DNA of 63,972 bases, counting the filler, from Candidatus Hydrogenedentota bacterium (GTDB taxonomy: Bacteria > JBFMHD01), in assembly GCA_040752395.1 (NCBI GenBank). It is 4 parts of 4 records of this genome, joined end to end, with 100 filler letters (N's around TTAATTAATTAA, not from the genome) between each part and the next. Parts side by side here need not be neighbours in the genome. Positions count along the whole stretch, not along the records: positions 32,737 to 48,924 come from JBFMHD010000047.1; 3 more parts are not named here. One strand, given 5' to 3'. The position numbers were made by a program, and so were the translations under genes. Below are positions 29,819-63,257 of the stretch, piece by piece. The notes beneath the pieces are model-generated. The model searched no databases, was not told where the DNA came from, and worked only from the letters and a program-made list of their open reading frames with translations. The stretch's first letter is position 1; every line of letters begins with the position of its first letter.

Positions 29819-29896
29819 TGAGGGTCACAAGACCCGAAGAAGAAGTAATAATATGTTTTGACTTTAATTACATGTATATGTATTAACAGATTATTT

Positions 29897-30220
29897 ATGC
29901 AGGAAATAACTATAGATGAAATAACTCGGGAGTTCTCAGATACATTAAAAAGACAACTAGGGAGCCATATTAAAAACATAATTTTATTCGGTTCAAGAGC
30001 GAGGAGCGATTATAGTAATTGGTCTGATTATGATTTTTTAGTAATTGTTGACAAGAAAAATAAAGGGATGAGGGAAATATTACTGGATAATGCTGTTTTT
30101 ATTATGAATAAATACTATGCTTTAGTCTCATGCCTACTATGGGAAGAAAAAGAATGGGAATTTAAAAAAAATATACCCATAGGTCTAAATATCTTAAAAG
30201 AGGGTATAATTTTACGATGA
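29897..30220 (+). CDS. Minimal nucleotidyltransferase (MNT) antitoxin-like
   Basis: ILFGSRARSDYSNWSDYDFLV (GS-X10-DXD). Confidence 0.88.
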   Translation: MQEITIDEITREFSDTLKRQLGSHIKNIILFGSRARSDYSNWSDYDFLVIVDKKNKGMREILLDNAVFIMNKYYALVSCLLWEEKEWEFKKNIPIGLNILKEGIILR

Positions 30221-30633
30221 CAGATGCTACATACATAAAGCCTTTGATAAAGAAGGCTTATGAAAAATTATTAACATCAAAAATTGATTTAGAAAATAAT
30301 CGCTATGAGGATTCGGCATCAAGAGCCTATTATTCAGTATTTCATTCTATATCATCAGTTTTATTATCAAAGGGTTTGCATTTTTCCTCACATAAAGAAG
30401 TTATTGGTGCTTTTAATAAAGAGTATATTCACGGTGGAGAATTTCCCGTATATTTTATCAAGAAAATTCAAAAATTATTTGAAGATAGGCAGATAGGAGA
30501 TTATGATATAGAGGAAATAATTGATAAAGAGACAGCAGAAGAAGATTATAAAAGTGCCGAAGAAATTGTTAATAAATGTGTAGAATATCTTACAGAAATA
30601 TACCAGGTGGATCAAAATTTCTGGAAAACATAG
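30217..30633 (+). CDS. HEPN domain protein
   Basis: SRAYYSVFH, SSHKEVI..F, RQIGDY; ATGA coupling with MNT. Confidence 0.88.
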   Translation: MTDATYIKPLIKKAYEKLLTSKIDLENNRYEDSASRAYYSVFHSISSVLLSKGLHFSSHKEVIGAFNKEYIHGGEFPVYFIKKIQKLFEDRQIGDYDIEEIIDKETAEEDYKSAEEIVNKCVEYLTEIYQVDQNFWKT

Positions 30634-32736: not shown

Positions 32737-32836
32737 GAGGCAAGATAACGAAAAAGAAAGATAACGAAAGAAGCAAGAGGCAAGAAGCAAGATAACGGAA
32801 GAAGTGAGAGGTAGCAGGACAGGCTACTATAGTTTT

Positions 32837-34315
32837 TCATCCTTCAAGTGCTCTTAACCCTATGCCAAGAGCAACAGGTAAACTACTGATTATTCCGGTA
32901 TACTTATCTGAATCACCATTGTTTTTAATTAGAAAAAAATCTTTTATATTCAAACGTTCCACAGGGATACCTAATCTTTGGGATAAAAATTCAAATAAAC
33001 CCTCAATATTTGAAGAACCGCCAGTAATAAACATCCTTGTTATTTTTCTACCCTTATTCTGTGATTCATAATAATTCATCGACCTTGTTATATCATTAAT
33101 AATCTGTGGTAGCAATAAAGAAAGCACAATACCGATATCAGCTACAATTTCTTCTTCCTTTATATTTTTAATATCTACTATTTTTCCTGAGCCACCTTCA
33201 ATGGATGGTGGCTTTTTTATCCTACCTATTTTTATAAATATATCATCAATGGCTTTTGGTTCGGATTTTGTTTCAGCTGCGATATCTGAAACAAGATGTT
33301 TAAAATCACCATCTATTTTTTGTGGTGGTGGCGGAGGCGATGGAGTCAATATCAGTGGTTTCTTACTCTCTTGTTCCTGCACTTTTATCTCTTTAACAGG
33401 TTCGGTTTCCTTTATCACTGCTGGTTCTGGCTTTATTATAGGTTTAAGCCTTGATGAGGGGATTGGTATTTTAGGAATTATCTGGGGTTTAGGTTTGGCT
33501 GTAATGATATCGAGGTCAAGGAGACTCTTTTTTGCTATTTCAGGTTTTATTTTAGCATACTTTTTTTTGAATGTTTCAGCATTTAAAAGACCGCAGGAGA
33601 AATCGTTTTCAATTATTTTTGTTATATTATCTCCGCCTAATCCTATATCACGCGAAAATACAGGCTGGTCTTTATCAAAAAGAATAAGTACTGTATTAAA
33701 TGCACCGATATTAATCAACGCTACAATATCGTCTGATTCTTTATATGGTTTTATCACTCTATAAAGATTACTTAAAGCTGAGACATCAGTATCTACGGCA
33801 TACGGATTCAGCCCGGCAGATTCTATAATCTCAAGATATTGTTGAATAACAAACTTTTTGCCCGCTGCCATTATGATATCCATTTTTGAGGAATCGTTTT
33901 TATTGCTGGCCGCGACTATATCAGCAGATATGACCACATCATTGATATTGAATGGTATGTATTGTTCAGCTTCATTGATGATGGCCTGGTTCAGCTCTGC
34001 TCTATCCATTTTTTGAAAAGCAATAAATCTTATTACGACAAAATCGCCGGAAATAGAAAAAATTACATTCTTAATATTCGATAATTTAGCTTCTTTTATC
34101 GTTTTTCGAATAGTTTGAACATAAATTTCCTTGTGCTTTAACGGGTTTGATTTATCTATTTCAGCAGGCGGCAGAGGCGAGATAGCTAATCTTTCAACTA
34201 CATAGTGGTTGTTCTGATTAGCTAATGATAAACATTTTATAGAATTTGTACCTAAATCTAATGCAAAAACCTTTTTAGCAGCCATATACTTATCAAATAG
34301 CGACCTTTTCGACAT
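32837..34315 (-). CDS. pilM: Type IV pilus assembly protein PilM with Pro/Lys-rich insertion
   Basis: ALDLGTNSIK, EAEQYIPF, LINIGA, IGLGGDNIT, ITGGSS, VALGIGLR. Confidence 0.85.
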   Translation of the reverse strand: MSKRSLFDKYMAAKKVFALDLGTNSIKCLSLANQNNHYVVERLAISPLPPAEIDKSNPLKHKEIYVQTIRKTIKEAKLSNIKNVIFSISGDFVVIRFIAFQKMDRAELNQAIINEAEQYIPFNINDVVISADIVAASNKNDSSKMDIIMAAGKKFVIQQYLEIIESAGLNPYAVDTDVSALSNLYRVIKPYKESDDIVALINIGAFNTVLILFDKDQPVFSRDIGLGGDNITKIIENDFSCGLLNAETFKKKYAKIKPEIAKKSLLDLDIITAKPKPQIIPKIPIPSSRLKPIIKPEPAVIKETEPVKEIKVQEQESKKPLILTPSPPPPPQKIDGDFKHLVSDIAAETKSEPKAIDDIFIKIGRIKKPPSIEGGSGKIVDIKNIKEEEIVADIGIVLSLLLPQIINDITRSMNYYESQNKGRKITRMFITGGSSNIEGLFEFLSQRLGIPVERLNIKDFFLIKNNGDSDKYTGIISSLPVALGIGLRALEG

Positions 34316-34766
34316 TTTTTCTGTATTTATAAAAAACTACGGTGGTCCCCTGATTGTTAAGGTACGGTTTTATCTCAAGATGGTCAGCTAATTGGGACAT
34401 AAGATATAAACCGCGGCCACGTTTCTCAAGTATGGTTTTGTTAATATCAACAAGTGAAGTGATACTGTAATTTTTCAGTATCTCGTCCTTTGTTAAATGT
34501 AAATCACCCCTACCCTCGTCAATGACCTCAACCATTAATTTTTCATAATCAATAAAAATATTAACAGTAATTTTATTATCACTATATTTCGGGGAGCCAT
34601 GTTCAATAGCATTTGTGCAAGCCTCATCAAGCAGGGTTTCGATAACATGTGCATCGGCTTTGTCAAATCCAACACTTTTCGAGAGTTCAGAAATGAATAA
34701 TCTTATTGGTCTTATATAAATATATCTTGCTGGAAAAATAAACTGAAAATAGTCTGCTTGTGACAT
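34293..34766 (-). CDS. Anti-sigma factor / Ser kinase (RsbW/SpoIIAB-like)
   Basis: EACTNAIEHG, VIDEGRG, RGRGLYLM, GTTV. Confidence 0.88.
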   Translation of the reverse strand: MSQADYFQFIFPARYIYIRPIRLFISELSKSVGFDKADAHVIETLLDEACTNAIEHGSPKYSDNKITVNIFIDYEKLMVEVIDEGRGDLHLTKDEILKNYSITSLVDINKTILEKRGRGLYLMSQLADHLEIKPYLNNQGTTVVFYKYRKNVEKVAI

Positions 34767-34769
34767 AGT

Positions 34770-35108
34770 TTATTTACCAATAATATCCTCAATAGAGTTA
34801 TAAATATTAAAAATCTGGGTGCCACCAAGTATGTTGAAAATCATCATATTATGTTCAGATAAAGAGCATATTTTTATGCTGCCTCCCATCCCGGAAAAAA
34901 CCTGATACCTATGAACAAGAATTCCAAACCCTCTGCTGTTTATATGACCCAAATCTTTTAGATTAATTATTAAATTAATTTTACCCGAGTCCTTTAACTC
35001 ATCAAGCGTTTTACCAAGCTGGGTTACATTAGACGCATCTATATCACCTTTTATATTTAAGATTGTGAGTCCCTTTCTTTCTTCAATATCAAAAATTAAA
35101 TCAGCCAC
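34770..35108 (-). CDS. STAS anti-anti-sigma factor (RsbV/SpoIIAA-like)
   Basis: KGDIDA, INSRGFGIL with the conserved Ser; GTG start. Confidence 0.88.
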   Translation of the reverse strand: MADLIFDIEERKGLTILNIKGDIDASNVTQLGKTLDELKDSGKINLIINLKDLGHINSRGFGILVHRYQVFSGMGGSIKICSLSEHNMMIFNILGGTQIFNIYNSIEDIIGK

Positions 35109-35117
35109 CTCTTAAGC

Positions 35118-35262
35118 CTCCTCTGAAAAACATTGTAACTATAATAATATCAAGTAGAAGCAAGAAGCAAGATGCAAGATAACGAAAAAAGTAAGAAGTA
35201 AGAAGTGGGAAGTGAGAAGTATCAGGACAGGCTACAGGCTACGGACTACAGCCGGCTGGAGC
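35118..35262 (-). repeat. Composite intergenic repeat ending in the RBS module
   Basis: Reverse complement of the 19139-19256 architecture with extra heptamers. Confidence 0.9.
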
Positions 35263-35285
35263 CTGAAGCCAACATATCATCTTTA

Positions 35286-38200
35286 CTAACGCCTTACCTC
35301 GCGCATAGAGCCAACAAACCAGTTGGTTGTCTTGGCTAACGTACCCTGACCTATCTCAGATAATTTCAAATTCTGCGGATGATTTATAACCAGCTTTGAG
35401 CCTTGATTAATGATGAGCTTTTTGCAAACAATCGAGCCAAGACCTGTTATCTCTACATCTGCATCTGAATTAAGAATAATATTATTATTTGAAAAAATAA
35501 CACCTGTGTCAATCCTAATCACACCTGAGATCGTTATATCACCACCAAGCGCAAATAAATCAAAGATACCCGAATCAACAGATATTGCTAATGGTATGTT
35601 CACACTAATATTTCCATCACAGACAATGGCGCCATCCGGGTTGTCAGGGATATCTGTTACTGTAGCATCACCTGACACATAATAGAGTTTATCAACAGGA
35701 TCAGTATTATCAAAGGTATAATTACCTGAGATGCTTTTTTCAGTTATTTCTTTGAATACATCATCATAAGTGAATTGCGGGATATTCTTATATACATCGC
35801 TACCAGTATTCCATCTTGATGTATCACTCACAGCATAATCAAATGGATAGATGGGTCCAAAAAATGCTTTTCTGACGCCATTAACATCAGCTGTATCAGT
35901 ATATATAGCGGGGTATGATTTACCAAGAAGTTTTCCTGGTTGTGGTGCGGCTGGTGTATCGTTTGGTCCAAAATATGCCGATGGATTGGCATTGGTCAAT
36001 ACATCGCCTGTGATGCTTACAATACCTGGTCTTAAATCTATCGTATCTTCACTTGCTAAAGCACAGAAATCAAATACACTGAGCGGCGGTTTTTTATATT
36101 GGAATAAAGCTACTATTGAATGAGTCTTATCTTTTATTTTTCCAGTTGAGGTAACTTTTACTCTGCTCTCAAATGGGAACTTGAAAGGTTCCGAGGCTTC
36201 ACCCTCATCGCCGATTGAATTAAAATATACAGTGTCTGCATTATCAGTTATACCATTCTGAAAAATAAAGAGACTATTATCATTAAGTTTTATATAATAT
36301 TCAATAGCGCCCCCGGTATAATTGAAATCATATCTGTAATAATACTTATTACTGCCGGTAAATTCTTCAATCCCTGGTGGTGCATTAAAATTTTCAGGTG
36401 GTTGCCATGCTTCACCAATTTTTCGCCACACAAGCTGAAACTGGGCATCTTTTCTACCTATAACACCTGCAAAGAATTTTACCGTACCCTGGGCTGTTGG
36501 CCAGGCAGGGCTACGCATAGTATATTTTGTAGGGCTTCCTGTAGATTCAACAGCTTCTTTGCTAACCGGGTTATGCCAGCAAGCAAGTAAATCACGCTTT
36601 TGAATAACAAATCGGAACGGGCTTTTTATCGCATCAGACCAGGCACCTATTCTATATCCTGTTATGCCATTATCATCATAAGCATAGAGGAATCGACGTT
36701 CTGCCCGGGTTAAAAGATAATTACTTCCTGGCGCTTCATAAGGATTATTTATCTCAAAAAAGTATTCGATGGTATCACCAACATTAGCATTTAAATACCT
36801 GACACCAGCTGTACCACCTGTACCTAAATTTACACCCTCGTATTTATATAACCAGGCATTACCATAATCAATGTTACCAAAAGTACGCCAATAATTGAAA
36901 GTATCAGAAGCATCAGATTGAGGAGTATACCATTTGATACTGCCATCAACATAGTATTCATCGTCACCAACTAAAACTTTATAAGAGTTGTTCCAGTTAG
37001 CATCATAGGTAGCGTGTCCAACTCGGTTGACTCTTATAAACAAAAGAATATTTAATATTTCATTATGAGATGTATGAACGTTGTTAGTTGCATCAACCAC
37101 TTTATAGAAATGGTCTTGCGGGTCACCAGGCGGGACATCGTAGGCACCGACAGAAAAGTTTACGTCTGCGTTTTCTTTGGGTTCACGGTTAGCACGCATT
37201 GTTTCATTGGAGTTTTCCCAGGATTTGTAATAAAACGTATATGGGTCGTGCCAGATAGGATAATCTATCGGTATCACGACTGTTTGCGAAGCAGCACCTA
37301 ACATACCACGTCTATCACGTGCCCAGATTCTTAGATAATATGTCTGACCTAAACTTAATATAAAATTCTCGCTGCCATCACCATTCGGGACTGTCCAGGA
37401 AGTTTGTGGTAAGTAGTTGTTATGATATACAACAGTATTAACAGGACCTGCACCTGTTTGTGAGCTGTTAATCACCCAGTTTGATTGCCATTGTAAGAAA
37501 CCGTTACCATCAGTATTTGGAGAGGTACTTATCTGGATATAATAACCAAGTATAGAATCGCCAGAATCACCGTCAGGCGATACAGGGTTCCAGGTTATAA
37601 CAGGGTTATTTGTAAGAATAGTATCACCACTACTTCGCCAGATACCAAAAACGCTGTCATAATATCTGATATTTGAAGGTGCGGATGGTAGACGCGGGTT
37701 TAGAGCATCACCATCAAAATCAAATGCGATATCAATATAAGAAAATATATTACCATCGCTTAGTTCATCCTTCCATTCAGTTGAGGTGCTGTATAGTCCA
37801 TAACTCAGTGCATCTAAAATATCAGAGGCAGAATTTGCGATATCAGCTGTCTTGTCCACTGTTTGTGGGTCTCCACCAATACGTTTAGCAGTTGCAATGG
37901 TTAATCTAATACGGTCAGGCCGCTTTGAGAATTTTAAATCGCTCCAGGATACCCGGGCTTCCATAAAATTATCATTAACGTTTATAGCAACAGCTGAGGC
38001 AGCGGATAATACCCAGCCAGAACCAGGATTGTAATAATCATAAATATATACGCCATCTATATCCATAATAATATTTTTCTCCGAGTACTGTTCTGTCCTA
38101 CCAAGTAGGGTGCTTGGCTGGATGCCATCAGACCGCGATTCATCACCTATCCAGTCTAATCCCAGCGTACCGCCCTCGGGATTAGAATTAATGTGGGTAT

Positions 38201-39701
38201 CCATAGCTACGTTGAACTGAAACATATTAGCACCGTTAACATTATCTAAATCATCTGCTCTAACAAAGAAATATAAATAATAAGTATCAGCTATTATATG
38301 GATATCCCTGATATCGTATGTAGGTCCGTCTCCGAGAACAGTCGTTTCATCGTACAACTTATCTCTCCAAACCCATTCTGTATCAATTTTATTTGTTGCA
38401 AGTATTGCTGTGTTACCGATATAAGGCAGGGTATCAAACCAATCAGATTTGTTACCATCTATGGTACGCTTGTATTGTCCAAATGTAATTATTACGGTCG
38501 AATCAGTGGCATTAAAATTAGTGCTGGTAGCCTTAATTTCTACGGTACCACCTATAGTTGATCTAATATGAACCCTCGCAAACCCGTGTGCATCTGTCTG
38601 ATCAACGCTGTCAGAAATATCACCACCAAAAAAAGAAGCTTGTCCGCTAATAATTGAGAACGTGACGTTTTCTATAGATTTCGGATAACCATTAGCATCA
38701 GCTACATAAACATAAATCGTTGAAGAGTCAGTACCATTAGCTAAACAGCTATATTTAGATGCATCTATTCCTTCGATTACATAGCGAAAATAAAATTCGG
38801 GGGGGGCTCCTGATGGCGGTGTTCCCAATGTTCCCCAGGTGGTTGCGGTATCTGATGCGTTGTTTCTATAAACATAAACATCATTAGCATCACTATCATC
38901 ACGGAAATGGATGTGATAATTAACTATCCCGGGCGTACTGAAAGTCAATTGCGTGTACCAGATGTCATAACCGTACTGTGAGTCATCCCATACATGGGAC
39001 CAGGTATTTGCAGAAGTCGACCAGCTACCACCATTATAGTGATACCAGGTCCTATACTGATACCAGAACTCTATCTGGTCAGCGTCGTCGCGTGCCTCAC
39101 GATAATATATCTTAACTGTAGAATCAGTAAATACCTGCTGGGGCTGACGCTGGAGTCCTGTAATACCCCACTGATTGTTCAGATTGGGATTATGACCGAC
39201 TTTATCCCATTGGATATTATCATCAGAGCCGCCATCTTTAATAGTAAATTGTATTTTATCTGCTGGATCCATTCCTGCACCATCAGTATATTTATCATCA
39301 TTACCATCAGTTCCTTCGCCATGAGCATACCATTTTATTGTGGCATTGGGTGTAAAAGATGGTAAAACATATTGAAAATTATCATTGTTGCCAGCCTGGG
39401 AATCAAATGTCATATTTTGTTCTGAGGCCTGCCAGGAACCATTAACAGACCAGTTTATATAACAATAAGAATTTTGGCCTGCAGGGGGTGTAGTAACACT
39501 TCCCAGATCATCATAAAACTCAACCCAGACCCTGACCCTTTCCCAGGGCATACAATAATTATCATAACTGAGTCCGGGGTTCCACCCATTTCCACCACTC
39601 CAATATATTTCCTGCCAGGTCGCTCCTATCCATGGTGCGGAATAAATCGCTTTTACATTAACTATAAAAAATAGAATCAAAATTAATTTAAAAATCTTCA
39701 T
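35286..39701 (-). CDS. Giant secreted multidomain protein (Ig/Big_1, DOMON/CBM-like, Fn3) with a PilX-type C-terminal region
   Basis: Signal peptide; ANGTDSSTI..VADANGYP..TDAHGFA (Big_1), TIDGNKSDW..DIRDIHI..YLYF (DOMON-like), YYLRIWARD (Fn3); C-terminal VKVTSTG followed by beta-helix-like text. Confidence 0.7.
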   Translation of the reverse strand: MKIFKLILILFFIVNVKAIYSAPWIGATWQEIYWSGGNGWNPGLSYDNYCMPWERVRVWVEFYDDLGSVTTPPAGQNSYCYINWSVNGSWQASEQNMTFDSQAGNNDNFQYVLPSFTPNATIKWYAHGEGTDGNDDKYTDGAGMDPADKIQFTIKDGGSDDNIQWDKVGHNPNLNNQWGITGLQRQPQQVFTDSTVKIYYREARDDADQIEFWYQYRTWYHYNGGSWSTSANTWSHVWDDSQYGYDIWYTQLTFSTPGIVNYHIHFRDDSDANDVYVYRNNASDTATTWGTLGTPPSGAPPEFYFRYVIEGIDASKYSCLANGTDSSTIYVYVADANGYPKSIENVTFSIISGQASFFGGDISDSVDQTDAHGFARVHIRSTIGGTVEIKATSTNFNATDSTVIITFGQYKRTIDGNKSDWFDTLPYIGNTAILATNKIDTEWVWRDKLYDETTVLGDGPTYDIRDIHIIADTYYLYFFVRADDLDNVNGANMFQFNVAMDTHINSNPEGGTLGLDWIGDESRSDGIQPSTLLGRTEQYSEKNIIMDIDGVYIYDYYNPGSGWVLSAASAVAINVNDNFMEARVSWSDLKFSKRPDRIRLTIATAKRIGGDPQTVDKTADIANSASDILDALSYGLYSTSTEWKDELSDGNIFSYIDIAFDFDGDALNPRLPSAPSNIRYYDSVFGIWRSSGDTILTNNPVITWNPVSPDGDSGDSILGYYIQISTSPNTDGNGFLQWQSNWVINSSQTGAGPVNTVVYHNNYLPQTSWTVPNGDGSENFILSLGQTYYLRIWARDRRGMLGAASQTVVIPIDYPIWHDPYTFYYKSWENSNETMRANREPKENADVNFSVGAYDVPPGDPQDHFYKVVDATNNVHTSHNEILNILLFIRVNRVGHATYDANWNNSYKVLVGDDEYYVDGSIKWYTPQSDASDTFNYWRTFGNIDYGNAWLYKYEGVNLGTGGTAGVRYLNANVGDTIEYFFEINNPYEAPGSNYLLTRAERRFLYAYDDNGITGYRIGAWSDAIKSPFRFVIQKRDLLACWHNPVSKEAVESTGSPTKYTMRSPAWPTAQGTVKFFAGVIGRKDAQFQLVWRKIGEAWQPPENFNAPPGIEEFTGSNKYYYRYDFNYTGGAIEYYIKLNDNSLFIFQNGITDNADTVYFNSIGDEGEASEPFKFPFESRVKVTSTGKIKDKTHSIVALFQYKKPPLSVFDFCALASEDTIDLRPGIVSITGDVLTNANPSAYFGPNDTPAAPQPGKLLGKSYPAIYTDTADVNGVRKAFFGPIYPFDYAVSDTSRWNTGSDVYKNIPQFTYDDVFKEITEKSISGNYTFDNTDPVDKLYYVSGDATVTDIPDNPDGAIVCDGNISVNIPLAISVDSGIFDLFALGGDITISGVIRIDTGVIFSNNNIILNSDADVEITGLGSIVCKKLIINQGSKLVINHPQNLKLSEIGQGTLAKTTNWFVGSMREVRR

Positions 39702-39803
39702 AAAATATCTTCAAAGTTAAGTTTTCGGTTATCCGACCTCAGCACTTCGGCACTGGTGTCTTTCTTGCCTCTTGCTTCTATAATACCACCTATAACTAAG
39801 TGG

Positions 39804-40211
39804 TTACATAAAGGGTTCAATAGTTACTGTAATCTGGCCGCCTTCGAAATTTATCGTTCCTTGTGCAGGTTGAGTATCAAAGGGGTTTCGTTGACCAGTT
39901 ACAAGGTTTTCAATCTCAGTTGAGAAATTATGATCAGTATTAAGTTTTTGAAGCGTGAGCTCAAGCCCTGTTTCAGCAAGATGTCTGTCTTTAGCTATAA
40001 ATCTGTAAAAGATAGTTGTGAGTGATTCCTGTTGATGCGAAAAAGTTATAGCGAGCGCCATAATAAAAGCTATAACAAGAAGAACGATAGCAACGACAAT
40101 AGCGGCGCCACCACGCATGGATCGAAGCGACAATTGGCGACTTTCTGCGAATGTCGACATCTTATCTACCTCGCTTGTAATTCGTGATTGCAGTAATCCT
40201 TGTTTCTTCAT
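39804..40211 (-). CDS. PilX N-terminal-like minor pilin (short)
   Basis: RGGAAIVVAIVLLVI hydrophobic segment lacking E5; HLAETGLE; true start may lie downstream of 40211. Confidence 0.7.
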   Translation of the reverse strand: MKKQGLLQSRITSEVDKMSTFAESRQLSLRSMRGGAAIVVAIVLLVIAFIMALAITFSHQQESLTTIFYRFIAKDRHLAETGLELTLQKLNTDHNFSTEIENLVTGQRNPFDTQPAQGTINFEGGQITVTIEPFM

Positions 40212-40854
40212 AGATATCTGGCATATTTCTTCTGAAAAATCCCCGTTTCTTTTTTCTTATAGATAACGTAATGGCGATACGATCAATGGGTACATCTTTT
40301 TCAAAATTAAATAAAGTATTATCATAATCAGATGCGACGAAAGTATTGCCGTCAACGTTATGGATAGAAAAATTCCAGGAAAAAGTATCACCGGTTTCAA
40401 TAGAATCAAGGTTAAAAATTCGGGTAATTTCATAATCTGAATTATTATATTTATCGACCTCACGAAATATTCTGCGATTCTGCAAACGATAAACAAAGGT
40501 ATCAAAATCATCATCTTCAGGATGGTTTTCCCAATCATCAGTATCCTTTGGGTCATCAGCACATATAAAGACAAATTGGGTAGCATTGCTCAGTATATCG
40601 AAATTTCGCTGGGTCTGAACAAAACCTGTGAAATCTTGTTTAAACCAATAAGTTATATTCTTCAAATCTCGCTGAATCCTCAATCTTTCTTCTGATTCCT
40701 GATATGCGATATAGATAGCGCCAAAAATTTTATTCAATGCAAAGATTACAGCTGAGATGATAGCAACTACTACAAGAAGTTCAACAAGAGTAAACCCATA
40801 CATAAAGACTTGAGACTTGTTAGGGCATCTACTCTGTCTTTGGTAAAGTTTCAT
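40162..40854 (-). CDS. Prepilin N-methylation domain protein (PilW/GspJ-like)
   Basis: GFTLVELLVVVAII. Confidence 0.85.
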   Translation of the reverse strand: MKLYQRQSRCPNKSQVFMYGFTLVELLVVVAIISAVIFALNKIFGAIYIAYQESEERLRIQRDLKNITYWFKQDFTGFVQTQRNFDILSNATQFVFICADDPKDTDDWENHPEDDDFDTFVYRLQNRRIFREVDKYNNSDYEITRIFNLDSIETGDTFSWNFSIHNVDGNTFVASDYDNTLFNFEKDVPIDRIAITLSIRKKKRGFFRRNMPDIYEETRITAITNYKRGR

Positions 40855-40870
40855 AATCTTGCCTCTTACC

Positions 40871-41326
40871 CTATCTTTTCAATCCGTGTCTTGTAATAAC
40901 ACAGACCACAGTTTCTGATCTTGTATTTTTTTCTACTGTCCAGCATACTACAGTTTCAATCTTAATAAAATCTGTTGGAATATCAGCTAATGCTGCATCT
41001 GAAAGACTACCATTAGCATTCTGTTTTTGATATCTAATGAATGTTTTTCTTGAATAAATGCTTCCGGGCAATTTACCTTCATCAAACGAAGCAGAAAGAT
41101 TATAAGCGAGCGAGTCCGCCTCAATCTTACTGAAACCATAAGACCTTAATTCTTCAAGTTTCTCAGCAGCAAGATGGCTTGAGCAAGCAACAGTCCCGAT
41201 ATGAAACGTATTCATCTCGAGCCTGTTTAACGCAAGAACAATCGGTAAAAGCCCTAAAGCTAAAATAGATAATGCTATGAGAAGCTCAATTAAAGAAAAG
41301 CCGTTACGCCTATGTTCTGGATTCAT
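40871..41326 (-). CDS. Prepilin N-methylation domain protein (PilV/GspI-like)
   Basis: GFSLIELLIALSILALG; LAAEKLEELR. Confidence 0.87.
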   Translation of the reverse strand: MNPEHRRNGFSLIELLIALSILALGLLPIVLALNRLEMNTFHIGTVACSSHLAAEKLEELRSYGFSKIEADSLAYNLSASFDEGKLPGSIYSRKTFIRYQKQNANGSLSDAALADIPTDFIKIETVVCWTVEKNTRSETVVCVITRHGLKR

Positions 41327-41384
41327 AGACCCCTTTGAAAAAAGTAAGAAGTAAGAAGTGAGAAGTATCAGGACAGGCTACAGA

Positions 41385-41484
41385 CTCCGGGCTTCGGGCT
41401 CCAGCCGGCTGTAGTTCGTAGCCTGTAGCCTGAACCCAACTTCCTTTAAAAAATTCAGAATTCGGAAATAATCTTTGAATCTTT
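41385..41484 (+). repeat. 100-bp direct repeat downstream of pilC
   Basis: Two mismatches versus 42759-42858. Confidence 0.93.
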
Positions 41485-41519
41485 GTGCCTCTGTGCCTTT
41501 GGGCTTCTTGCTTCTTGCC

Positions 41520-42731
41520 TCAATGTATCAGATCAGCAAGACTAAGTATCGGTAAAAATAAAGCGATTATAACAAAACCAAGTACAATACCCAGAAAGAC
41601 AATGAGTATAGGTTCAATAAGAGAAGAGAAGGCTTCTACAGCAACATCAACCTGCTCTTCATAAAAATCAGATGCTTTAATAAGCATCTCACCCAGATTC
41701 CCGGTAGATTCGCCAACAGCTACCATTTGAACTACAAGCGGCGGGAAGATACCGCTTTGTTTTAAAGGTTGAGCAAAGGTTTGACCTGAACGGATTGATT
41801 CCTGCACATTAGCAATAGTATCTTCTATGATAAGATTAGCTGCTGTTTTAGTAACAACGTTAAGAGCCTGAATTATAGGTACACCACTTATAGTTAAAGT
41901 GCCAAGTGTTCGGCTGAATCTTGATATAGAAACTTTTAAGATAAGTTCACCAAAAACAGGCATTTTTAGTTTATATTTGTCAATAACTCTACGGATATTT
42001 TCGTTCTTTAACCCTATCCTGTAGATCACATATAAAATTATAAACCCAAGAAATACAAAAAGGTAGTAAACTCTGATTAAATCAGAGATAAACATAAGAA
42101 TTCTGGTGGGTAGCGGGAGATGAGCTCCTGCATGAGCAAAAGTATCAGCAAATTTCGGGACGACAAATGTGAGGATACCCCATACAATGAGTATCGCTAT
42201 GGATGAGACTACAACAGGATAAGTCATAGCACCCTTGATTTTACGCCTTAATCGCTCTGTGTTCTCAAGATACGTAGCAAGTCTTTCAAGGATTACATCA
42301 AGGACTCCACCAGCTTCACCTGAACGTAACATATCCACATACATAGTCGAAAATATTTTAGGGTGTTTAGATAAAGCCTCAGATAAATCTGAACCACTCT
42401 CTATATCATGAATAAGTTTACCGATAATTTCTTTAAAATATTCACCTGACATTTGTTCCTGCAGGGTTCTTAATGAAGTAACAATTGGTAGTCCAGCATT
42501 AATAAGTGTTGCAAACATTCTGGTGAATAGCACAAGTTCTGAGCTTTTGACTTTTTTCTTTGTGAAGATATTAATATAACTCAATATAGATTCTTTGATT
42601 TCTTCAACATTTAAGACGGTTAATTCCTGGGCTCTTAATCTTGTTATAATTTCTCTGGGATTGGCGCCGAGAAGAACGCCCTGAACAAGCTCGCCTGATC
42701 GGTTTTTTGCTTTATAACTGAATTCTGGCAA
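41520..42731 (-). CDS. pilC: Type IV pilus platform protein
   Basis: FTRMFATLINAGLP, SGEAGGVL, AMTYP, VGESTGNL, LIEP; TTG start. Confidence 0.95.
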   Translation of the reverse strand: MPEFSYKAKNRSGELVQGVLLGANPREIITRLRAQELTVLNVEEIKESILSYINIFTKKKVKSSELVLFTRMFATLINAGLPIVTSLRTLQEQMSGEYFKEIIGKLIHDIESGSDLSEALSKHPKIFSTMYVDMLRSGEAGGVLDVILERLATYLENTERLRRKIKGAMTYPVVVSSIAILIVWGILTFVVPKFADTFAHAGAHLPLPTRILMFISDLIRVYYLFVFLGFIILYVIYRIGLKNENIRRVIDKYKLKMPVFGELILKVSISRFSRTLGTLTISGVPIIQALNVVTKTAANLIIEDTIANVQESIRSGQTFAQPLKQSGIFPPLVVQMVAVGESTGNLGEMLIKASDFYEEQVDVAVEAFSSLIEPILIVFLGIVLGFVIIALFLPILSLADLIH

Positions 42732-42758
42732 GATAATACTCCTCTTTCGGGCTTCAGG

Positions 42759-42858
42759 CTCCGGGCTTCGGGCTCCAGCCGGCTGTAGTTCGTAGCCTGT
42801 AGCCTGAAACCAACTTCCTTTAAAAAATTTAGAATTCGGAAATAATCTTTGAATCTTT
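42759..42858 (+). repeat. 100-bp direct repeat upstream of pilC
   Basis: Copy of 41385-41484. Confidence 0.93.
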
Positions 42859-42872
42859 CAATACGACTACCT

Positions 42873-44579
42873 TTATATAAGCGCATCTTCAGTTGCTACT
42901 CGCCATAACTCTTCAACCGATGTGACACCACTTAATACTTTACGAACACCTGCCTGCCTTAAAGTCCGCATACCGTCAGCCAATGCCTGGTCTTTTAGCT
43001 CAGATGATGATGCCCGCTGAATAATTAACCGTTTCAGTTGTTCCGTTACTCTGAGGATCTCAAATATACCTATTCTGCCCCTGTAACCAGTATTACTGCA
43101 ATCATCGCAACCTCTGCCGCGATAGAGTTTTATATTATGATTTATATCTTTAATTTTTAATGCCTTGATAAATTCAGGTGAAGGTGTATATGCTTCTTTA
43201 CAGGATTCACATATTTTACGAACAAGTCTTTGAGCAACAACCATAATCAGTGATGAAGTAATAAGAAACGGCTCGACACCCATATTATCAAGCCGCACAA
43301 TAGCACCTGGTGCGTCGTTTGTATGGAGCGTAGAGAAAACAAGGTGTCCGGTAAGTGCGGCATTAATAGCTATTTCAGCGGTTTCCTGGTCACGGATCTC
43401 GCCTATCATCAGGATATCCGGGTCCTGTCTTAATATAGAACGAAGAGCTGAGGCAAAAGTTAAACCGATCTGGGGTCTTGCTGGCATCTGATTTATGCCG
43501 TGTAAAATATATTCTATCGGATCTTCAACTGTTACAATATTATCTTCCTGAGTATTTATCATATTGAGAGCTGAATATAATGTTGTGGTTTTACCGCTAC
43601 CCGTTGGTCCTGTAACAAGTATGATACCATGTGGTTCTTTTATATAATTTTTGAAAACTCTAAGTTCATCTTCATCCATCCCGAGTTTATCAAGCTCAAC
43701 CATCATTCCGCTTTTATCAAGTATTCGCATAACCACTTTTTCACCGAATGAGGTTGGTAGCGTAGAAATTCTGAAATCTACCTCTTTATCAGCAAGTCTG
43801 ACCTTGAATCTACCGTCCTGTGGTAGACGTCTCTCTGCGATGTCAAGTTCTGCCATAATTTTAATACGGGAGATAATAGCGTTCTGGAACCGTTTTGGCG
43901 GCGGGGTGACTTCGTATAAGACACCATCTATTCTATATCTGACTCTAAAAGTATTTTCATAGGGTTCAAGATGTATATCAGTAGCTTTGGCTCGCAATGC
44001 CTCCATTATAATAAGGTTCACCATTTTGATTATAGGCGTTTCTTCGGATTGCTCTTTAAGTTCTGCAACCGAGGTTTGTGATTGCGAGAGATCAACGAGT
44101 TCAACACCATCCTCATCAATGTTTTCAAGTATCTCTTCCATAGTTCCGGCAATATCATAAAGCTGAGTTATCGCATTTTTTATGGCAGATGCAAAAGAAA
44201 CCATTACTTCAATCTTAGGATAACCCGTAATCATTTTGATATCATCAATGAGATAGATATTAGTAGGGTCAGCCATAATAATCTTCAAAGTATTGCCTTC
44301 TTTTTGAAAAGGGATAACAATTTGTTCTTTGACAATCTGCTCGGGTATAATTTTTTTCAATTTAGGTTCAATGGTATCGATTTTCGATGCATCTATATAT
44401 TTAAGGTTTAACTGTTCGGCAAGTGTGCGTGCTATATCTTCTTCATTTATTATCCCCATTCCCTTAAGGATGTCACCTAATCTGCCGCCCTTTTTCTTTT
44501 GTATCTCCAGTGCATCGTCAAGGTCTTTTTTAGTTATTTTTTTGTTTTCAATAAGAATTTCACCGATGAGTTTTCTCAC
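42873..44579 (-). CDS. pilB: Type IV pilus assembly ATPase with MshEN-like N-terminus
   Basis: IGEIL..RLGDIL, ERRLPQDG, GPTGSGKT, RQDPD, STLHTND, tetracysteine motif. Confidence 0.95.
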   Translation of the reverse strand: MRKLIGEILIENKKITKKDLDDALEIQKKKGGRLGDILKGMGIINEEDIARTLAEQLNLKYIDASKIDTIEPKLKKIIPEQIVKEQIVIPFQKEGNTLKIIMADPTNIYLIDDIKMITGYPKIEVMVSFASAIKNAITQLYDIAGTMEEILENIDEDGVELVDLSQSQTSVAELKEQSEETPIIKMVNLIIMEALRAKATDIHLEPYENTFRVRYRIDGVLYEVTPPPKRFQNAIISRIKIMAELDIAERRLPQDGRFKVRLADKEVDFRISTLPTSFGEKVVMRILDKSGMMVELDKLGMDEDELRVFKNYIKEPHGIILVTGPTGSGKTTTLYSALNMINTQEDNIVTVEDPIEYILHGINQMPARPQIGLTFASALRSILRQDPDILMIGEIRDQETAEIAINAALTGHLVFSTLHTNDAPGAIVRLDNMGVEPFLITSSLIMVVAQRLVRKICESCKEAYTPSPEFIKALKIKDINHNIKLYRGRGCDDCSNTGYRGRIGIFEILRVTEQLKRLIIQRASSSELKDQALADGMRTLRQAGVRKVLSGVTSVEELWRVATEDALI

Positions 44580-44660
44580 TCGTTTATCTCCAGCTAAATC
44601 CTTAATCTTGCACCCCTACCAATTGTCCGTTAAACAAATTTCTATACTTCCTCTCTATAA

Positions 44661-44708
44661 CTGAGAATGTGTGAAGATGCTCACTACAATTTTTTCACAC
44701 GTTCTGAG
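44661..44708. mobile_element. Miniature IS-end relic (MITE-like)
   Basis: TIR GAATGTGTGAA / TTCACACGTTC flanked by TGA on both sides; the same end occurs at 61-79. Confidence 0.5.
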
Positions 44709-44746
44709 GGGTTACAACTAAAACGTTTTAGCTAATTATATTATAC

Positions 44747-46102
44747 TTAAAAATTTATTCTTTTCAAGAGTAATTTTAAATTTTTTTCATCACAGGATTC
44801 TGCAATGATTCGAATAATAGGCTCTGTATTGGACGGTCTGATATGAAGCCAGTATGACGAGGTATAAATTTTAATACCATCACGGGTATCTAACCTCTCG
44901 CCAGGGATAAGTTTAATGGTCTTTTTAATTCTGTTAAACTGGTTTTTTTCTTTAAGTTTTATTTTCTTTTTTAAGGTTCTGTATTTTTTCACAGATTTGA
45001 ATATCTGGGATAATGGCTTATCTTCTTTTGCCATAAGTTCAAGAATTAAAGCCATAGAAATAAAAGAATCTCTACCATAATGCATAGCAGGATGTATAAC
45101 ACCACCATTACCCTCGCCACCTATACAGGCTCTTTTGTTCTTCATCATAGAGACAACAAAGACCTCACCTACTTTTGAATAATAAATTTTACCTTTGTAT
45201 TTTAAGACCTCGTCTCTTACAATGTAAGAGGTTGAGAGATTGGTTACAACGGCTCTATTCTCATTTTCTTTACTTAGAACGTTTCTTACACATAAAGCAA
45301 GTGTCATATCTTCTTGAGGCACCTCACCCTTCTCAGATATCAAAACCAATCTATCAGCATCAGTATCCTGTGCAAAACCGACATCATATTCTCCCTGCCG
45401 AATTATATTAGATGTAATTTTTAAATTTTCAGCTGAAGGCTCAAGAGGATGAAGGAATTCACCGTCCATATATAATCCAGAACCACTAACATCACAGCCC
45501 AATTCTTTTAATAATTTTATACCTATACAGGCGCCAGCACCACCATTAGCATCAAGAAAAACTCTGAACCTCTTTTTTTTAATATTTTTTAAATTGACTA
45601 TCTTCTTTATTTTAGAGATATATTTATCAACCCACGTGTTATCTACCCTGAAGTCACCCCTGCTTTTATTATTAGCCCATTTTAAAGTATCCTTGTTTTT
45701 TAAATAATTACTTAGTTTTGCTATTAACTTTTCATCAAAAAAAGTACCATCATCTTTAATAAACTTTAGACCGTTCCACTCTGGAGGATTATGGCTCGCA
45801 CTTATTACTATGCCACTGGCTGACTTGTAATATTCTACTGCGAACTGAACACAAGGTGTCGGTGCCATACCGATGTCTATTACATCAAACCCGCATAATG
45901 AAATAACAGATGAAATAATTTTTGAAAAATTTAAGCTTGTGTTTCTGGTATCCCTGCCTATGACAATAGTTTTATTTTCTGTTATCCGGACTGTTTTTAA
46001 AAAAGCCCTGACAAGATCATTCACGATATCAGGCGTAAAACTTTCGCCAACTATGCCACGAGCTCCCGAAGGTCCGAGAATAAGACTCATATTACTTCTC
46101 AC
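44747..46102 (-). CDS. Phosphohexomutase (phosphoglucosamine mutase/phosphomannomutase family)
   Basis: SASHNP, DTDADR, GGEGNGG, RPSNTEP. Confidence 0.9.
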   Translation of the reverse strand: MRSNMSLILGPSGARGIVGESFTPDIVNDLVRAFLKTVRITENKTIVIGRDTRNTSLNFSKIISSVISLCGFDVIDIGMAPTPCVQFAVEYYKSASGIVISASHNPPEWNGLKFIKDDGTFFDEKLIAKLSNYLKNKDTLKWANNKSRGDFRVDNTWVDKYISKIKKIVNLKNIKKKRFRVFLDANGGAGACIGIKLLKELGCDVSGSGLYMDGEFLHPLEPSAENLKITSNIIRQGEYDVGFAQDTDADRLVLISEKGEVPQEDMTLALCVRNVLSKENENRAVVTNLSTSYIVRDEVLKYKGKIYYSKVGEVFVVSMMKNKRACIGGEGNGGVIHPAMHYGRDSFISMALILELMAKEDKPLSQIFKSVKKYRTLKKKIKLKEKNQFNRIKKTIKLIPGERLDTRDGIKIYTSSYWLHIRPSNTEPIIRIIAESCDEKNLKLLLKRINF

Positions 46103-46116
46103 TTCTTACTTCTATT

Positions 46117-46452
46117 TTATATTTCTGGTTGCTGAGGGGGTGCTTCTTTAATGAATTGATGTACAGGCTTCCACGAACTACCCTCTTTTTTCCAATTAGC
46201 TAATCTCCAGTTAATTGATTTTAGATTAGGAACCTTTCGTAACTCTTTATCAAGCATTTTCATATGTAGCGGTTTAGAGAACTTATCCTGCTCTCTGTGA
46301 CTCCTTGGAAGTAATACACCAATAATCACAACATCACCCTGAGTTGACGAAATCGTTAAGAGATTGGTATTGATCCCCCTTTTTGTGAGCATCTGCTCTA
46401 TACGAATGTTTATTACTCTATCTTCAACACTCATTTTTTCCCGCCTTTTCAA
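46117..46452 (-). CDS. Hypothetical protein
   Basis: 111-aa ORF co-oriented with the operon; ATG start is probably at MSVED. Confidence 0.6.
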   Translation of the reverse strand: MKRREKMSVEDRVINIRIEQMLTKRGINTNLLTISSTQGDVVIIGVLLPRSHREQDKFSKPLHMKMLDKELRKVPNLKSINWRLANWKKEGSSWKPVHQFIKEAPPQQPEI

Positions 46453-46543
46453 CCTGTTATGAGCCCTTTTTACAACTCATAATGTATAAATTTAAAACAA
46501 TTGTCAAATACTTTTGCTTTCTGGTTCTTTCGCTATCTTGCTT

Positions 46544-47272
46544 CTAATATATCAACGTTGGACTAAAGTAGTTGTTAGTAAATAGGTATTTAGGATTTGA
46601 GACCTCAGTGTATATATCCTTCACATTGTTAAATATTGTGGCGTTATCGTCAAAATATTCTGCGTATCCTTTTCGTAAATCTCTTAAAGCTGTTAATAAT
46701 TCGATGCCCTCGATAGAGGGGATAAAAATATTATGAGTCAACCATTTAATAGTATTATCAATCTTCTCTACAATTTCTTTATACTTACTATTTTTATCTT
46801 TTAATAATTCTATTCTATTTTTAATTTCAGTATCAAAAGTTTTACCAATGAGGTCTGACTCATCTGTGAGCACGTTCATCATTGCTCTGATTCTGAAGAA
46901 ATTTACCATTGCTATAAATTTTCCAAGATTAGATAAGCTCTTTGTCTCAGTGATAAATAAGATATTTCTGAAATAGACAAAGAACGGGGCGGCATCATTG
47001 AATATTTCTGATAAAAGAAATATGCTGTCTTTTTCAGAAATAATATCAAGTAATTTTCTCTTGCTGGATAAAATATCGAGTCCTATAGTCTTATCTTCAC
47101 TTTTATTAATAAATTCATTATTTTTCCATGTGTAAATATCATAACCTTCCTCAATAACCACTTTCTGTCCGGGATGTATTATAGGTAATATAACAGGCTG
47201 TTCAGGGAGAGTTGACTCTTTTTTTTCTTTAATTTTTTGTAGTTTCTGTAATGCTCTTTGTATCTGGCTCAT
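46544..47272 (-). CDS. Hypothetical protein
   Basis: 242 aa; MSQIQRALQK N-terminus. Confidence 0.65.
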   Translation of the reverse strand: MSQIQRALQKLQKIKEKKESTLPEQPVILPIIHPGQKVVIEEGYDIYTWKNNEFINKSEDKTIGLDILSSKRKLLDIISEKDSIFLLSEIFNDAAPFFVYFRNILFITETKSLSNLGKFIAMVNFFRIRAMMNVLTDESDLIGKTFDTEIKNRIELLKDKNSKYKEIVEKIDNTIKWLTHNIFIPSIEGIELLTALRDLRKGYAEYFDDNATIFNNVKDIYTEVSNPKYLFTNNYFSPTLIY

Positions 47273-47376
47273 AATGGTGTTTCTTTAAGTAACTGGTCAG
47301 TTATAGATGATATTATAGAAGCAAGAAGCAAGATAACGGATAAAGAAAGATAACGAATGTCTTCTGTCTTCTATAC

Positions 47377-48846
47377 TTATTCACTACTTATAACTGAGTG
47401 GTTACTAAAATTGTTGGATATCGTTTTACTTTCTTTTAACTGTGTTCTTTCCCCCCACCATCTCTGTATGTCCCCCATTGTTACAAAGATAATCAATGAT
47501 ATTAGAAGTATAAAAAATACATTTTGTAATGCAGCCTGTATTTTGGGGTTTACGGGTATTCGGAATATCGATTCAAATAATAGAAACATAATCCAGCCGC
47601 CATCGAGGACAGGGATAGGTATTAAATTTATAAACCATAATGAGATGGTAAGTAAGGCAACCATTCTAAGTAATTCTTCTATACTCACGGCAGCACGTTC
47701 ACCTGTAAGATGAATTATTCCGAGCGGTCCTGCGAGCTGGTCTAATGATATTTTTCGTGTTATAAGAAGTTTTAATGCCCAGATAGTGCGGTCAACAATA
47801 AATACAATCTCATCATACGAAATCTTCAATGATTTGATAAGACTGAACCTTAATTTTCTGTTTTCTGGATATATACCTATTTGTGAGATAAAGATGTCTT
47901 TTTTACCCTGCTCGATATATACTCTTCCGTTAAAAATAAAAGTATCACCTGTGTATTCTTTAATCGCTTCTGTTGATATTTTTCTTTTCACTGGTTTAAT
48001 CTCTACTTCAAAAATTTCTTGCTTGCGTTTTATTTTTAGTTTTACTTTATCAGTGCGGCTAAAAAATATTTCTCGCTTTACATCAGTAAATTGAGTGCAG
48101 GTGTAATCATTAACGCTTAAAACCCAATCACCTTTTAGTAGTCCTGCATTATAAGCAGGATAATTTTTTATGACTTTACCGATTACGGGCTCTTCAAATG
48201 AGGTAAAACCAACATAGAACTGCTCTGATTTTGGATCTTTTTCAGGTTTTACTTTAAACTCTTTTATTAATCCATCACGCTTAATTTTAAAATTTAGTTC
48301 TTTTCCCTGTGAGTTTCGAATGATTCGCTGGATATCAAAAAAAGTAGTAGTTTTTTCATTATCTATCTCTAATACCTCATCACCCTCTTTTAACCCGGCA
48401 ATCTTAGCTGGTACATCTTTTATTTCACCTGCTGATGTTACGTATTCTAAAATAGTCCCGATTTTAGGAAGAAAACCCTCTGTTGCAGTACCTATAACCC
48501 AGTAAATAAACACAAATAACAAAAAACCGAAAATAAGATTGACCAACGGCCCTGCTATAACAATAATAATTCGCTGATATACAGGTTTGGATGCGAACTC
48601 ATCAGGTGCACCTGTTTTCTGCTCGTTCGGGTCTTCGCCTTTCATTTTCACATAGCCACCAAATGGTACGGCGGATATTTTATACTCAGTATCATTGTAT
48701 TTCAATCCAATTAATTTAGGGCCGAACCCGAGTGAAAAGACTTCTACTTTTACTTTAAAAAGTTTTGCAAAAATAAAATGACCGAACTCATGAATGAAGA
48801 TTAATATACCAAGAAAAAATACAGCGATAAGATAATTGAAAATCAT
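47377..48846 (-). CDS. rseP: RIP metalloprotease RseP
   Basis: HEFGH, SLGFGP, GGYVKM, AGPLVN, two PDZ domains, NLIPIPVLDGG. Confidence 0.95.
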   Translation of the reverse strand: MIFNYLIAVFFLGILIFIHEFGHFIFAKLFKVKVEVFSLGFGPKLIGLKYNDTEYKISAVPFGGYVKMKGEDPNEQKTGAPDEFASKPVYQRIIIVIAGPLVNLIFGFLLFVFIYWVIGTATEGFLPKIGTILEYVTSAGEIKDVPAKIAGLKEGDEVLEIDNEKTTTFFDIQRIIRNSQGKELNFKIKRDGLIKEFKVKPEKDPKSEQFYVGFTSFEEPVIGKVIKNYPAYNAGLLKGDWVLSVNDYTCTQFTDVKREIFFSRTDKVKLKIKRKQEIFEVEIKPVKRKISTEAIKEYTGDTFIFNGRVYIEQGKKDIFISQIGIYPENRKLRFSLIKSLKISYDEIVFIVDRTIWALKLLITRKISLDQLAGPLGIIHLTGERAAVSIEELLRMVALLTISLWFINLIPIPVLDGGWIMFLLFESIFRIPVNPKIQAALQNVFFILLISLIIFVTMGDIQRWWGERTQLKESKTISNNFSNHSVISSE

Positions 48847-48924
48847 AATGTTGTAAAAAGTATTATGTAACGCCTAAGTCTTCGGTGTAGTTTCTTTAAC
48901 TTGCTTCTTGCCTCTATTTTCTGA

Positions 48925-57687: not shown

Positions 57688-57916
57688 TATATATAACTGC
57701 ACCAAGTAAACTTCCACACCCTATGCTCATCCACACACATAAGCTACCGCCACCAACGTCCTGGCTGTGCGGAGTAATCATAGGTGTGTGGGCTTATGCC
57801 CGGGGTGTGGTGGTAAAAAACTTTTTATTAATTAATTATTATATACAATATCGGTAAAAAAACAAGCTTTTCTTTAATAATATTTAACATCTGGTTTAAG
57901 GCATAAAGACACAAAG

Positions 57917-62248: not shown

Positions 62249-62249
62249 T

Positions 62250-62702
62250 TTATAAGCTTTTAATCCTTAGTTCGAATATTTTACCTTCAGGCGTAATCAA
62301 AACTACCCTGTCTTCACAGATTTTAATATTATAATTATCCGTCAAGACAGGATACACTATTTTATCTTTTATAGCAATCCATTTTTTATTGTTTGAGGTA
62401 TAAATCAATGCCACAGGATTATATTCATCCCAGATTAAACCGCCGAGTCTGTAGTCAACAGAGGCTTGAGTTGTTTGCACTTCGTAATCTATATTCTGAA
62501 CAAACGATTGTACCGGGATAAAAGGGTCTCGTAAATTGTATGACTTAAATTCGTATGATTCTCTTTTAAACTTTTGAGTATCTACATCGGCTTGTAATAA
62601 GATATCTTTTGTAATAACGGCTTTATTCACCTCGACACTCTTTCTGCTGCAGCTTATTAGTGCGATAACAGAAATTAAAAGCAATAATAAAAGATTTTTC
62701 AT
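62250..62702 (-). CDS. pilP: PilP-like lipoprotein
   Basis: Lipobox LISC, RDPF motif, LGGLIW..PVALI; lies between pilO and pilQ. Confidence 0.7.
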   Translation of the reverse strand: MKNLLLLLLISVIALISCSRKSVEVNKAVITKDILLQADVDTQKFKRESYEFKSYNLRDPFIPVQSFVQNIDYEVQTTQASVDYRLGGLIWDEYNPVALIYTSNNKKWIAIKDKIVYPVLTDNYNIKICEDRVVLITPEGKIFELRIKSL

Positions 62703-63253: not shown

Positions 63254-63257
63254 ACTA

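Follow-up and report, generated by a model that had tools for sequence, protein, structure and literature searches.

Can one pilin fold be divided between two genes, the second of which encodes a giant exported protein? The question is raised by a type IV pilus locus of a Candidatus Hydrogenedentota bacterium (GenBank assembly GCA_040752395.1), located in the part derived from record JBFMHD010000047.1 (positions 32,737–48,924) of the DNA stretch analysed here. This stretch, hereafter the window, comprises 63,972 nucleotides (nt), filler included, in four parts joined end to end. On the minus strand, an open reading frame (ORF) of 135 amino acids (aa) at 39804–40211 is followed by an ORF of 1471 aa at 35286–39701. 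The initial annotation had described the former as a PilX-type pilin that stops right after GGQITVTIE, and had placed the rest of the pilin at the C-terminus of the latter. According to profile comparisons, the two gene products map to abutting, non-overlapping parts of one protein family. We consider it rather likely that they form a single tip minor pilin of the ComZ/PilX type (GspK family), encoded in two pieces that would be rejoined in trans for display at the pilus tip.

Two gene products along one pilin family

The 135-aa protein has a hydrophobic N-terminus in the style of GspK and PilX, contains RGGAAIVVAIVLLVIAF and HLAETGLELTLQKL, and ends with GGQITVTIEPFM, immediately followed by the stop codon; the PilX helix, the AETGLE motif and the stop after GGQITVTIE announced initially are all present. 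More specifically, the protein corresponds to the N-half of a split PilX/GspK-type tip pilin, with the membrane helix, the AETGLE helix, a loop and the first β-hairpin. Its true start is likely the ATG at 40160, which would give a protein of 118 aa; this codon lies 1 nt past the stop of the upstream gene, with GAGG in front. As in the PilX/GspK family, the gene comes third, after an I-type and a J-type minor pilin gene, both in the window and in three related loci (L001–L003) described below. A word-based homologue search with the 135-aa protein matched only the protein itself.

The C-half of the split pilin spans aa 1164–1471 of the giant protein (about 308 aa; 35289–36212, minus strand). It consists of a linker (PFKFPF), the predicted strands 3–4 (36099–36170), a β-solenoid and a conserved C-terminal tail of 22 residues (35289–35354); the motif ESRVKVTSTGKIKDKTHSIVALFQ starts at aa 1178 (nt 36170). 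Pfam has no match in the last 301 aa of the giant, nor in any of the six members of the C-half family. An exhaustive phmmer comparison of these 301 aa with 1.84 billion representatives yielded five proteins at E ≤ 0.001, the query itself included: (i) P0003, a protein of 1115 aa with its own signal peptide and 40% identity over the C-half domain; (ii) P0004, a fragment of 226 aa; (iii) P0005, a repeat protein taken as spurious; and (iv) P0006 (E 4.6e-6), a PilX-like protein of 360 aa from Candidatus Omnitrophota, complete in one chain. A search with P0006 gave 94 relatives, 43 of which, hand-picked at a query coverage of at least 83%, make up the reference alignment A1; fragments, near-duplicates and long insertion forms were left out.

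This reference is a real pilin family, as judged from three lines of evidence. PilX_N is found in 15 of its 43 members and DUF7305 in 10 (Ice_binding is found in 4). The AlphaFold2 model of P0006 obtained with A1 is confident, with a predicted local distance difference test (pLDDT) of 91.7 and a predicted TM-score (pTM) of 0.72. Finally, the family matches ComZ of Thermus thermophilus by fold, three ComZ chains heading the Foldseek matches of P0006 in the PDB (E 1.5e-7 to 3.1e-6), and by sequence (A1, E 0.0015). The next Foldseek matches are ice-binding solenoids (E 1e-4 to 1e-3).

The alignments of the small-pilin family (A3, four sequences) and of the C-half family (A4, six sequences) were compared with A1 by hhalign. 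A3 aligned with columns 18–120 (probability 96.5, E 7.7e-10) and A4 with columns 122–339 (probability 97.3, E 2.6e-11), so that the PilX-type homology at the C-terminus of the giant begins where the small pilin stops, as had been surmised from the window alone. Taken singly, the last 321 aa of the window's giant gave columns 122–340 (probability 96.7, E 4.7e-10) and the 135-aa protein columns 63–96 (probability 65.6, E 5.8e-5). When the membrane helix was removed from A3, the small-pilin family still aligned with columns 64–120 (E 4.8e-6; the reversed control gave 0.36).

The breakpoint falls at a precise place inside the pilin sheet. The P0006 model displays a helix (residues 13–71), four sheet strands (100–104, 107–116, 119–128 and 131–142), a solenoid (153–329) and short terminal strands (349–352 and 358–359); columns 120 and 122 of A1 match a turn of two residues that links strand 2 to strand 3. 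The chain of the small pilin, which ends at column 120, i.e. at the end of strand 2, does not contain a complete β-sheet. In this meander of strands, the solenoid branches off after strand 4, so that the turn between strands 2 and 3 is expected at the apex, on the side of the solenoid; this placement is deduced from the topology of the model and not from its coordinates.

The split in related genomes

A scan of 185,579 species genomes revealed four related loci, one in a Candidatus Hydrogenedentota metagenome-assembled genome (MAG; L001) and three in uncultured MAGs (L002–L004). L004 is cut by a contig end, and the DNA upstream of the giant gene could be assessed in L001–L003 only. All three display the same gene order (ATPase, platform protein, two minor pilins, small pilin, giant), a small pilin that terminates with GGxITVxIEPxx and the stop codon, and a stop codon that overlaps the ATG of the giant gene, as ATGA in L001 and as TGATG in L002 and L003. 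The gene pair is tightly linked. The giants of L001–L003, like P0003, start with signal peptides of the n/h/AxA type by eye, and the same holds for the window's giant, whose Sec-type signal peptide covers about aa 1–21 (39639–39701, minus strand; MKIFKLILILFFIVNVKAIYS/APW). The related proteins are 43–48% identical to those of the window over the small pilin, 37–41% over the C-half and 48–51% over the core of the intervening passenger. The passenger as a whole measures about 1140 aa in the window and about 870 aa in the relatives. The G+C content is 57–60% in L002, compared to about 35% in the window. Because the same truncated pilin and the same signal-peptide-bearing giant recur in all three loci, the split is, by sequence comparison, a conserved two-gene module and not an assembly error.

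Conservation is uneven within the two proteins. Mean pairwise identity reaches 62% in the globular portion of the small pilin; within the C-half, it is 66% for the tail but 42% for the solenoid. The last 22 residues of the giant are its most conserved stretch, one insert aside, and their invariant Trp can be aligned at low confidence with W-x-E-[IL], the motif at the end of the one-chain proteins. The highest identity in the C-half (67%) is found in residues ~81–150 (about 35763–35972), around KAFFGPIYPFDY...WNTGSDVY, a stretch without counterpart in the one-chain PilX-like family.

Proposed docking in trans and its alternatives

How might the two pieces work together? In the mechanism that we propose, the first gene would yield a short membrane-anchored piece made of the pilin helix and the first two β-strands, and the second a protein of 1471 aa exported by Sec. 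The C-terminal ~308 aa of the latter would provide strands 3–4, a cap formed by the β-solenoid, and the C-terminal strand, behind a passenger of ~1140 aa that follows the signal peptide. In the periplasm, the C-half would dock on the anchored N-half and rebuild the full PilX-like fold. The resulting heterodimer would join the PilV/GspI-like and PilW/GspJ-like minor pilins encoded upstream and prime the pilus, whose growth through the secretin would carry the passenger outside on the tip. The module would then perform the role of PilY1/PilC or MshQ, which use one donated strand. Docking in trans is well motivated by the profile matches, by the conserved gene pair, by one-chain relatives with passengers at the same turn (see below) and by analogy with these proteins; a position at the tip and an adhesin role are likewise proposed.

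Several observations weigh against this mechanism. First, Pfam recognizes no family in the window's 135-aa protein, and NCBIfam GspK matches it at E 0.0016 over profile positions 3–93 of 307, with 18 bits for a cut-off of 130; the curated cut-offs of PilX_N (Pfam) and GspK (NCBIfam) are not reached. In the small-pilin family, two of the four members match PilX_N weakly (best E 0.0023). Second, the significance of the C-half is carried by the solenoid (E 5e-10, compared to 0.013 for the reversed control), and one solenoid may resemble another. The isolated hairpins are not significant, neither that of the giant (E 0.093) nor that of the small pilin (E 0.089), although both are placed at the expected columns of A1 (122–146 and 107–120, respectively). 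According to these controls, the statistical weight lies with the helix and loop in the N-half and with the solenoid in the C-half; strands 3–4 are assigned by collinearity, placement and motif. Third, the structural match between P0006 and ComZ has low TM-scores (0.30–0.34) and a root-mean-square deviation of 12.8–14.7 Å. When modelled alone, the C-half reaches an overall pLDDT of 51.4: the solenoid core (residues 160–280) is the only confident part (pLDDT 62–90), values under 50 are found in strands 3–4 and in the tail, which the model renders as a helix. With six sequences in the alignment, this last model is uninformative. Finally, the two genes of the window are 102 nt apart instead of overlapping as in the relatives, and a prepilin motif scan of the whole window found no major pilin, the canonical motif being present in the 151-aa and 230-aa minor pilins only.

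If the small pilin were a self-sufficient minimal PilX, the giant could attach as PilY1 or MshQ do, by its extreme C-terminal strand, the solenoid and the putative strand 3–4 hairpin being part of the adhesin body. The donation of a single strand is the documented mode according to the excerpted text of PMC12918778, the tail counts as the most conserved part of the C-half, and the giant's hairpin is not significant on its own. We nevertheless consider this attachment unlikely, since the alignment of the small pilin ends at column 120 and that of the giant starts at column 122, the isolated hairpin of the giant still finds its best place directly past this break, and, in the single-chain model, strands 3–4 belong to a four-stranded sheet in which they come right after strand 2; a self-sufficient small pilin would be left with its helix and one hairpin.

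Less probable still is the absence of any physical link. The giant would then be secreted or placed at the surface independently, or be carried as a cargo of the machine, and happen to contain a pilin-derived solenoid; the small pilin would be a degenerate remnant. Such independence would fit a passenger without recognizable family. It is difficult to reconcile with two ORFs that remain intact at 37–51% identity to the window's copies across genomes of 35% and 57–60% G+C, with the overlap of stop and start codons in all three relatives, or with the conservation of the globular part of a supposed remnant.

The spacer (39702–39803, minus strand) bears on the last alternative. It is highly improbable that an error of assembly, a frameshift or a stop codon has interrupted a single large PilX gene here, or that the small pilin continues in another frame: the two ORFs do share a reading frame in the window, and a frame of 41 codons (39698–39823, minus strand), shifted by +1 from that of the small pilin, runs open through the spacer, its TGA overlapping the ATG of the giant, but three further in-frame stops follow the pilin's TAA within the 102 nt, the pilins of L001–L003 stop at the same residue with the giant in a different frame, a signal peptide stands at the start of all giants, and the peptide of the alternative frame lacks similarity to the PilX profile (probability 0.15). 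On account of the extra stops and the different frames in the relatives, read-through was rejected too. The open +1 frame is probably due to chance, since its peptide does not resemble the PilX profile and the relatives neither have nor need a counterpart. A candidate RNA element in the spacer was rejected as well: it consists of one 8-bp hairpin (z-score -1.76) and 7 of 200 shuffled sequences fold at least as well. Rfam has no family anywhere in the window, and promoter and terminator scans found nothing in the spacer.

Returning to a pilin rebuilt from two pieces, one-chain proteins of Omnitrophota indicate how it might have arisen. P0094 (584 aa) carries, in this order, the helix, GNGTYAIWVPG, DUF2341 (224–287), Laminin_G_3 (351–512), VTIYARGTASGLSRIITQSVVI and, at the end, RDWDDLKW; in P0017 and P0020, strand 2 is separated from strands 3–4 by an additional solenoid. 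These proteins belong to the same family as the reference profile and, like the window's module, bear a passenger at the strand 2/3 turn; unlike it, they are encoded by a single gene, have no internal signal peptide, and carry passengers unrelated to that of the window. The turn is thus a recurrent insertion site, which offers a simple route: a passenger would first be inserted and grow, and the gene would then split, the distal part gaining a signal peptide. The initial annotation had called for a search for fused or similarly split homologues; the split pair recurs in L001–L003, and one-chain forms with other passengers at this turn are found among these distant relatives. None of the five phmmer matches to the C-half (E ≤ 0.001) among the 1.84 billion representatives is a close relative fused to a pilin helix, and a search with A3 for longer forms that include the small pilin came out empty, although the tool itself qualifies such a negative as weak evidence.

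We tentatively view the module as a living intermediate between cis and trans tip assembly, in which a passenger-bearing pilin of the PilX/ComZ type would have been fissioned at the apical turn of its sheet and its distal piece would have gained a Sec signal peptide; we hold this history with somewhat more doubt than confidence. If it is true, two polypeptides with separate routes to the periplasm make up one pilin fold, and large non-pilin tip adhesins such as PilY1 or MshQ could have arisen likewise, the C-terminal strand that they donate being a remnant of a pilin.

Passenger, gene context and known systems

The passenger is less well characterized than the C-half. Its conserved core (aa 408–1163, ~760 aa; 36213–38480, minus strand) has no Pfam match as a four-sequence profile, and the PDB sequence search gave a single match, which is not significant (E 0.087). 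In the window's copy, and there only, it is preceded by an N-terminal extension (aa 22–407, ~385 aa; 38481–39638, minus strand), absent from P0003 and all four related loci, which includes a Big_1 Ig-like domain (aa 314–407, Pfam E 4.4e-11) and represents modular growth of the passenger. Searched with Pfam as a whole and in four pieces, at E up to 10, the giant matched only Big_1 and related Ig-like models and showed no domain of the PilY1/PilC type, such as the C-terminal β-propeller. The Atlas gave leads for the extension (Alpha-amylase_N, 0.85) and for the core (Glucodextran_C, 0.85, and CBM9, 0.81), all of them below the score of 0.9 above which a match counts as more than a lead; glycan binding is accordingly a reasonable guess and a lead only. 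Of the signal peptide and Ig, DOMON and Fn3 domains ascribed to the giant at the outset, the signal peptide (by eye) and one Ig-like domain are retained, whereas DOMON and Fn3 correspond to sub-threshold Atlas leads; the proposed display without PilY1 agrees with the Pfam results, which show no PilY1-type domain in the giant.

The two genes belong to a pilus operon on the minus strand. It begins with a PilB/GspE-type assembly ATPase (42873–44579, 568 aa; Pfam T2SSE E 7.6e-148, and MshEN) and a PilC/GspF-type platform protein (41520–42731, 403 aa; T2SSF E 3.5e-62). Two minor pilins with canonical prepilin motifs follow: a PilV/GspI-type protein (40871–41326, 151 aa; N_methyl E 6e-8, NCBIfam PilV 7.8e-5 and GspI 6.9e-4, both below cut-off) and a PilW/GspJ-type protein (40162–40854, 230 aa; N_methyl E 3.5e-5, NCBIfam PRK10557 1.1e-6 and GspJ 4.2e-4, both below cut-off). 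After the 135-aa and 1471-aa ORFs come a STAS/anti-sigma kinase pair and PilM (32837–34315, 492 aa; PilM_2 E 3.8e-44), the final gene of the block. PilM is unusually long, its actin-like fold being interrupted midway by ~150 aa rich in Pro and Lys. The STAS anti-sigma-antagonist (112 aa) and the anti-sigma-factor kinase (157 aa), encoded at 34293–35108 (minus strand), constitute a partner-switching pair within the pilus operon; none was seen after the giant gene in the ORF lists of L001–L003.

Elsewhere in the window, a minus-strand cluster at 60326–63848 encodes a PilN-like protein (PilN E 0.0015, below cut-off), PilO (E 5.4e-25), a 150-aa ORF and a secretin (Secretin E 1.7e-41); the organism therefore has an outer-membrane channel for the pilus. 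Close to this cluster, additional large surface-type proteins are encoded at 50044–57717 (minus strand): a second giant ORF of 1761 aa with fn3 and ASH matches, then a cohesin/FlgD_ig protein (298 aa) and a TPR protein (503 aa). The window further contains a PolC-type DNA polymerase III alpha subunit, with the exonuclease inserted in the PHP domain (89–4312, minus strand), a heptosyltransferase (22980–24152) in the same window as this polymerase and the secretin, and, at 29858–30633 on the plus strand, genes for a nucleotidyltransferase (120 aa) and a HEPN protein (138 aa), which overlap at their ends and resemble an MNT/HEPN-type toxin–antitoxin module.

The attachment of non-pilin adhesins at the tip of type IV pili has been explained only recently, by the donation of one C-terminal strand to PilK/PilX. 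The module described here would extend strand donation to half a pilin fold plus a solenoid cap, and the sequence signs of a pilin descent of the donated part outline a concrete evolutionary route, from insertion through fission to a separate adhesin. It would also provide a compact natural system for fold complementation, with a soluble fragment of ~75–80 aa (the small pilin minus its membrane helix) and a partner of 308 aa, and it suggests a way to spot tip-displayed proteins in uncultured phyla without PilY1. Literature searches on split, bipartite or truncated PilX or pilins, and on Hydrogenedentes and type IV pili, returned nothing related or relevant. The principle, i.e. trans complementation of a K-type tip pilin by a large protein encoded downstream, is known; a donated part of this size (half a sheet, solenoid and tail), with a demonstrable descent from a pilin, and a conserved fission appear to be undescribed.

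Three groups of proteins invite comparison. The PilC1 and PilC2 proteins of Kingella are reportedly named with the PilC/PilY1 tip adhesins that dock by C-terminal β-strand complementation. As described in the excerpted text of Ellison et al. (bioRxiv 2026, PMC12918778), ~10 C-terminal residues of PilC/PilY1 and, in models, of MshQ complement the sheet of a PilK-type pilin in trans. These proteins resemble the window's giant as large Sec-exported non-pilins that are encoded directly after the I–J–K minor pilin genes and contribute part of the K-type sheet through their C-terminus, a contribution that is proposed in the case of the giant. They differ from it in that they donate ~10 residues, and PilY1/PilC have a β-propeller; the part putatively donated in the window comprises ~308 aa and is homologous to the pilin's own strands, solenoid and tail. 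GspK and CpaL/TadG supply their own C-terminal strand to the sheet in cis (PMC12918778, same excerpts). They share with the window's module an apical K-type subunit with an inserted domain, but they are single polypeptides with another inserted domain, and the window's small pilin remains far below the GspK cut-off.

The third group comprises ComZ of Thermus thermophilus (PDB 6QVI) and the solenoid-bearing cyanobacterial PilX. In the excerpts of PMC6561018 and PMC13759059, their GspK-like pilin fold is interrupted by a large triangular β-solenoid resembling ice-binding proteins, and both are proposed to be tip or cap pilins in systems without PilY1; cyanobacterial PilX, of the same build as ComZ, is proposed as a cap that replaces PilY1 (PMC13759059). 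P0006, the window's single-chain relative, matches ComZ best by fold and weakly by sequence, and its model joins an ice-binding-like solenoid to the pilin sheet; the window's C-half is homologous to that solenoid, its own model having a pLDDT of 51.4. ComZ and cyanobacterial PilX, however, consist of one chain, with the solenoid between the penultimate and the last strand in these excerpts, whereas in the window the break in the chain separates strand 2 from strand 3 and the second piece carries a Sec signal peptide and a passenger of ~1140 aa ahead of the remainder of the pilin.

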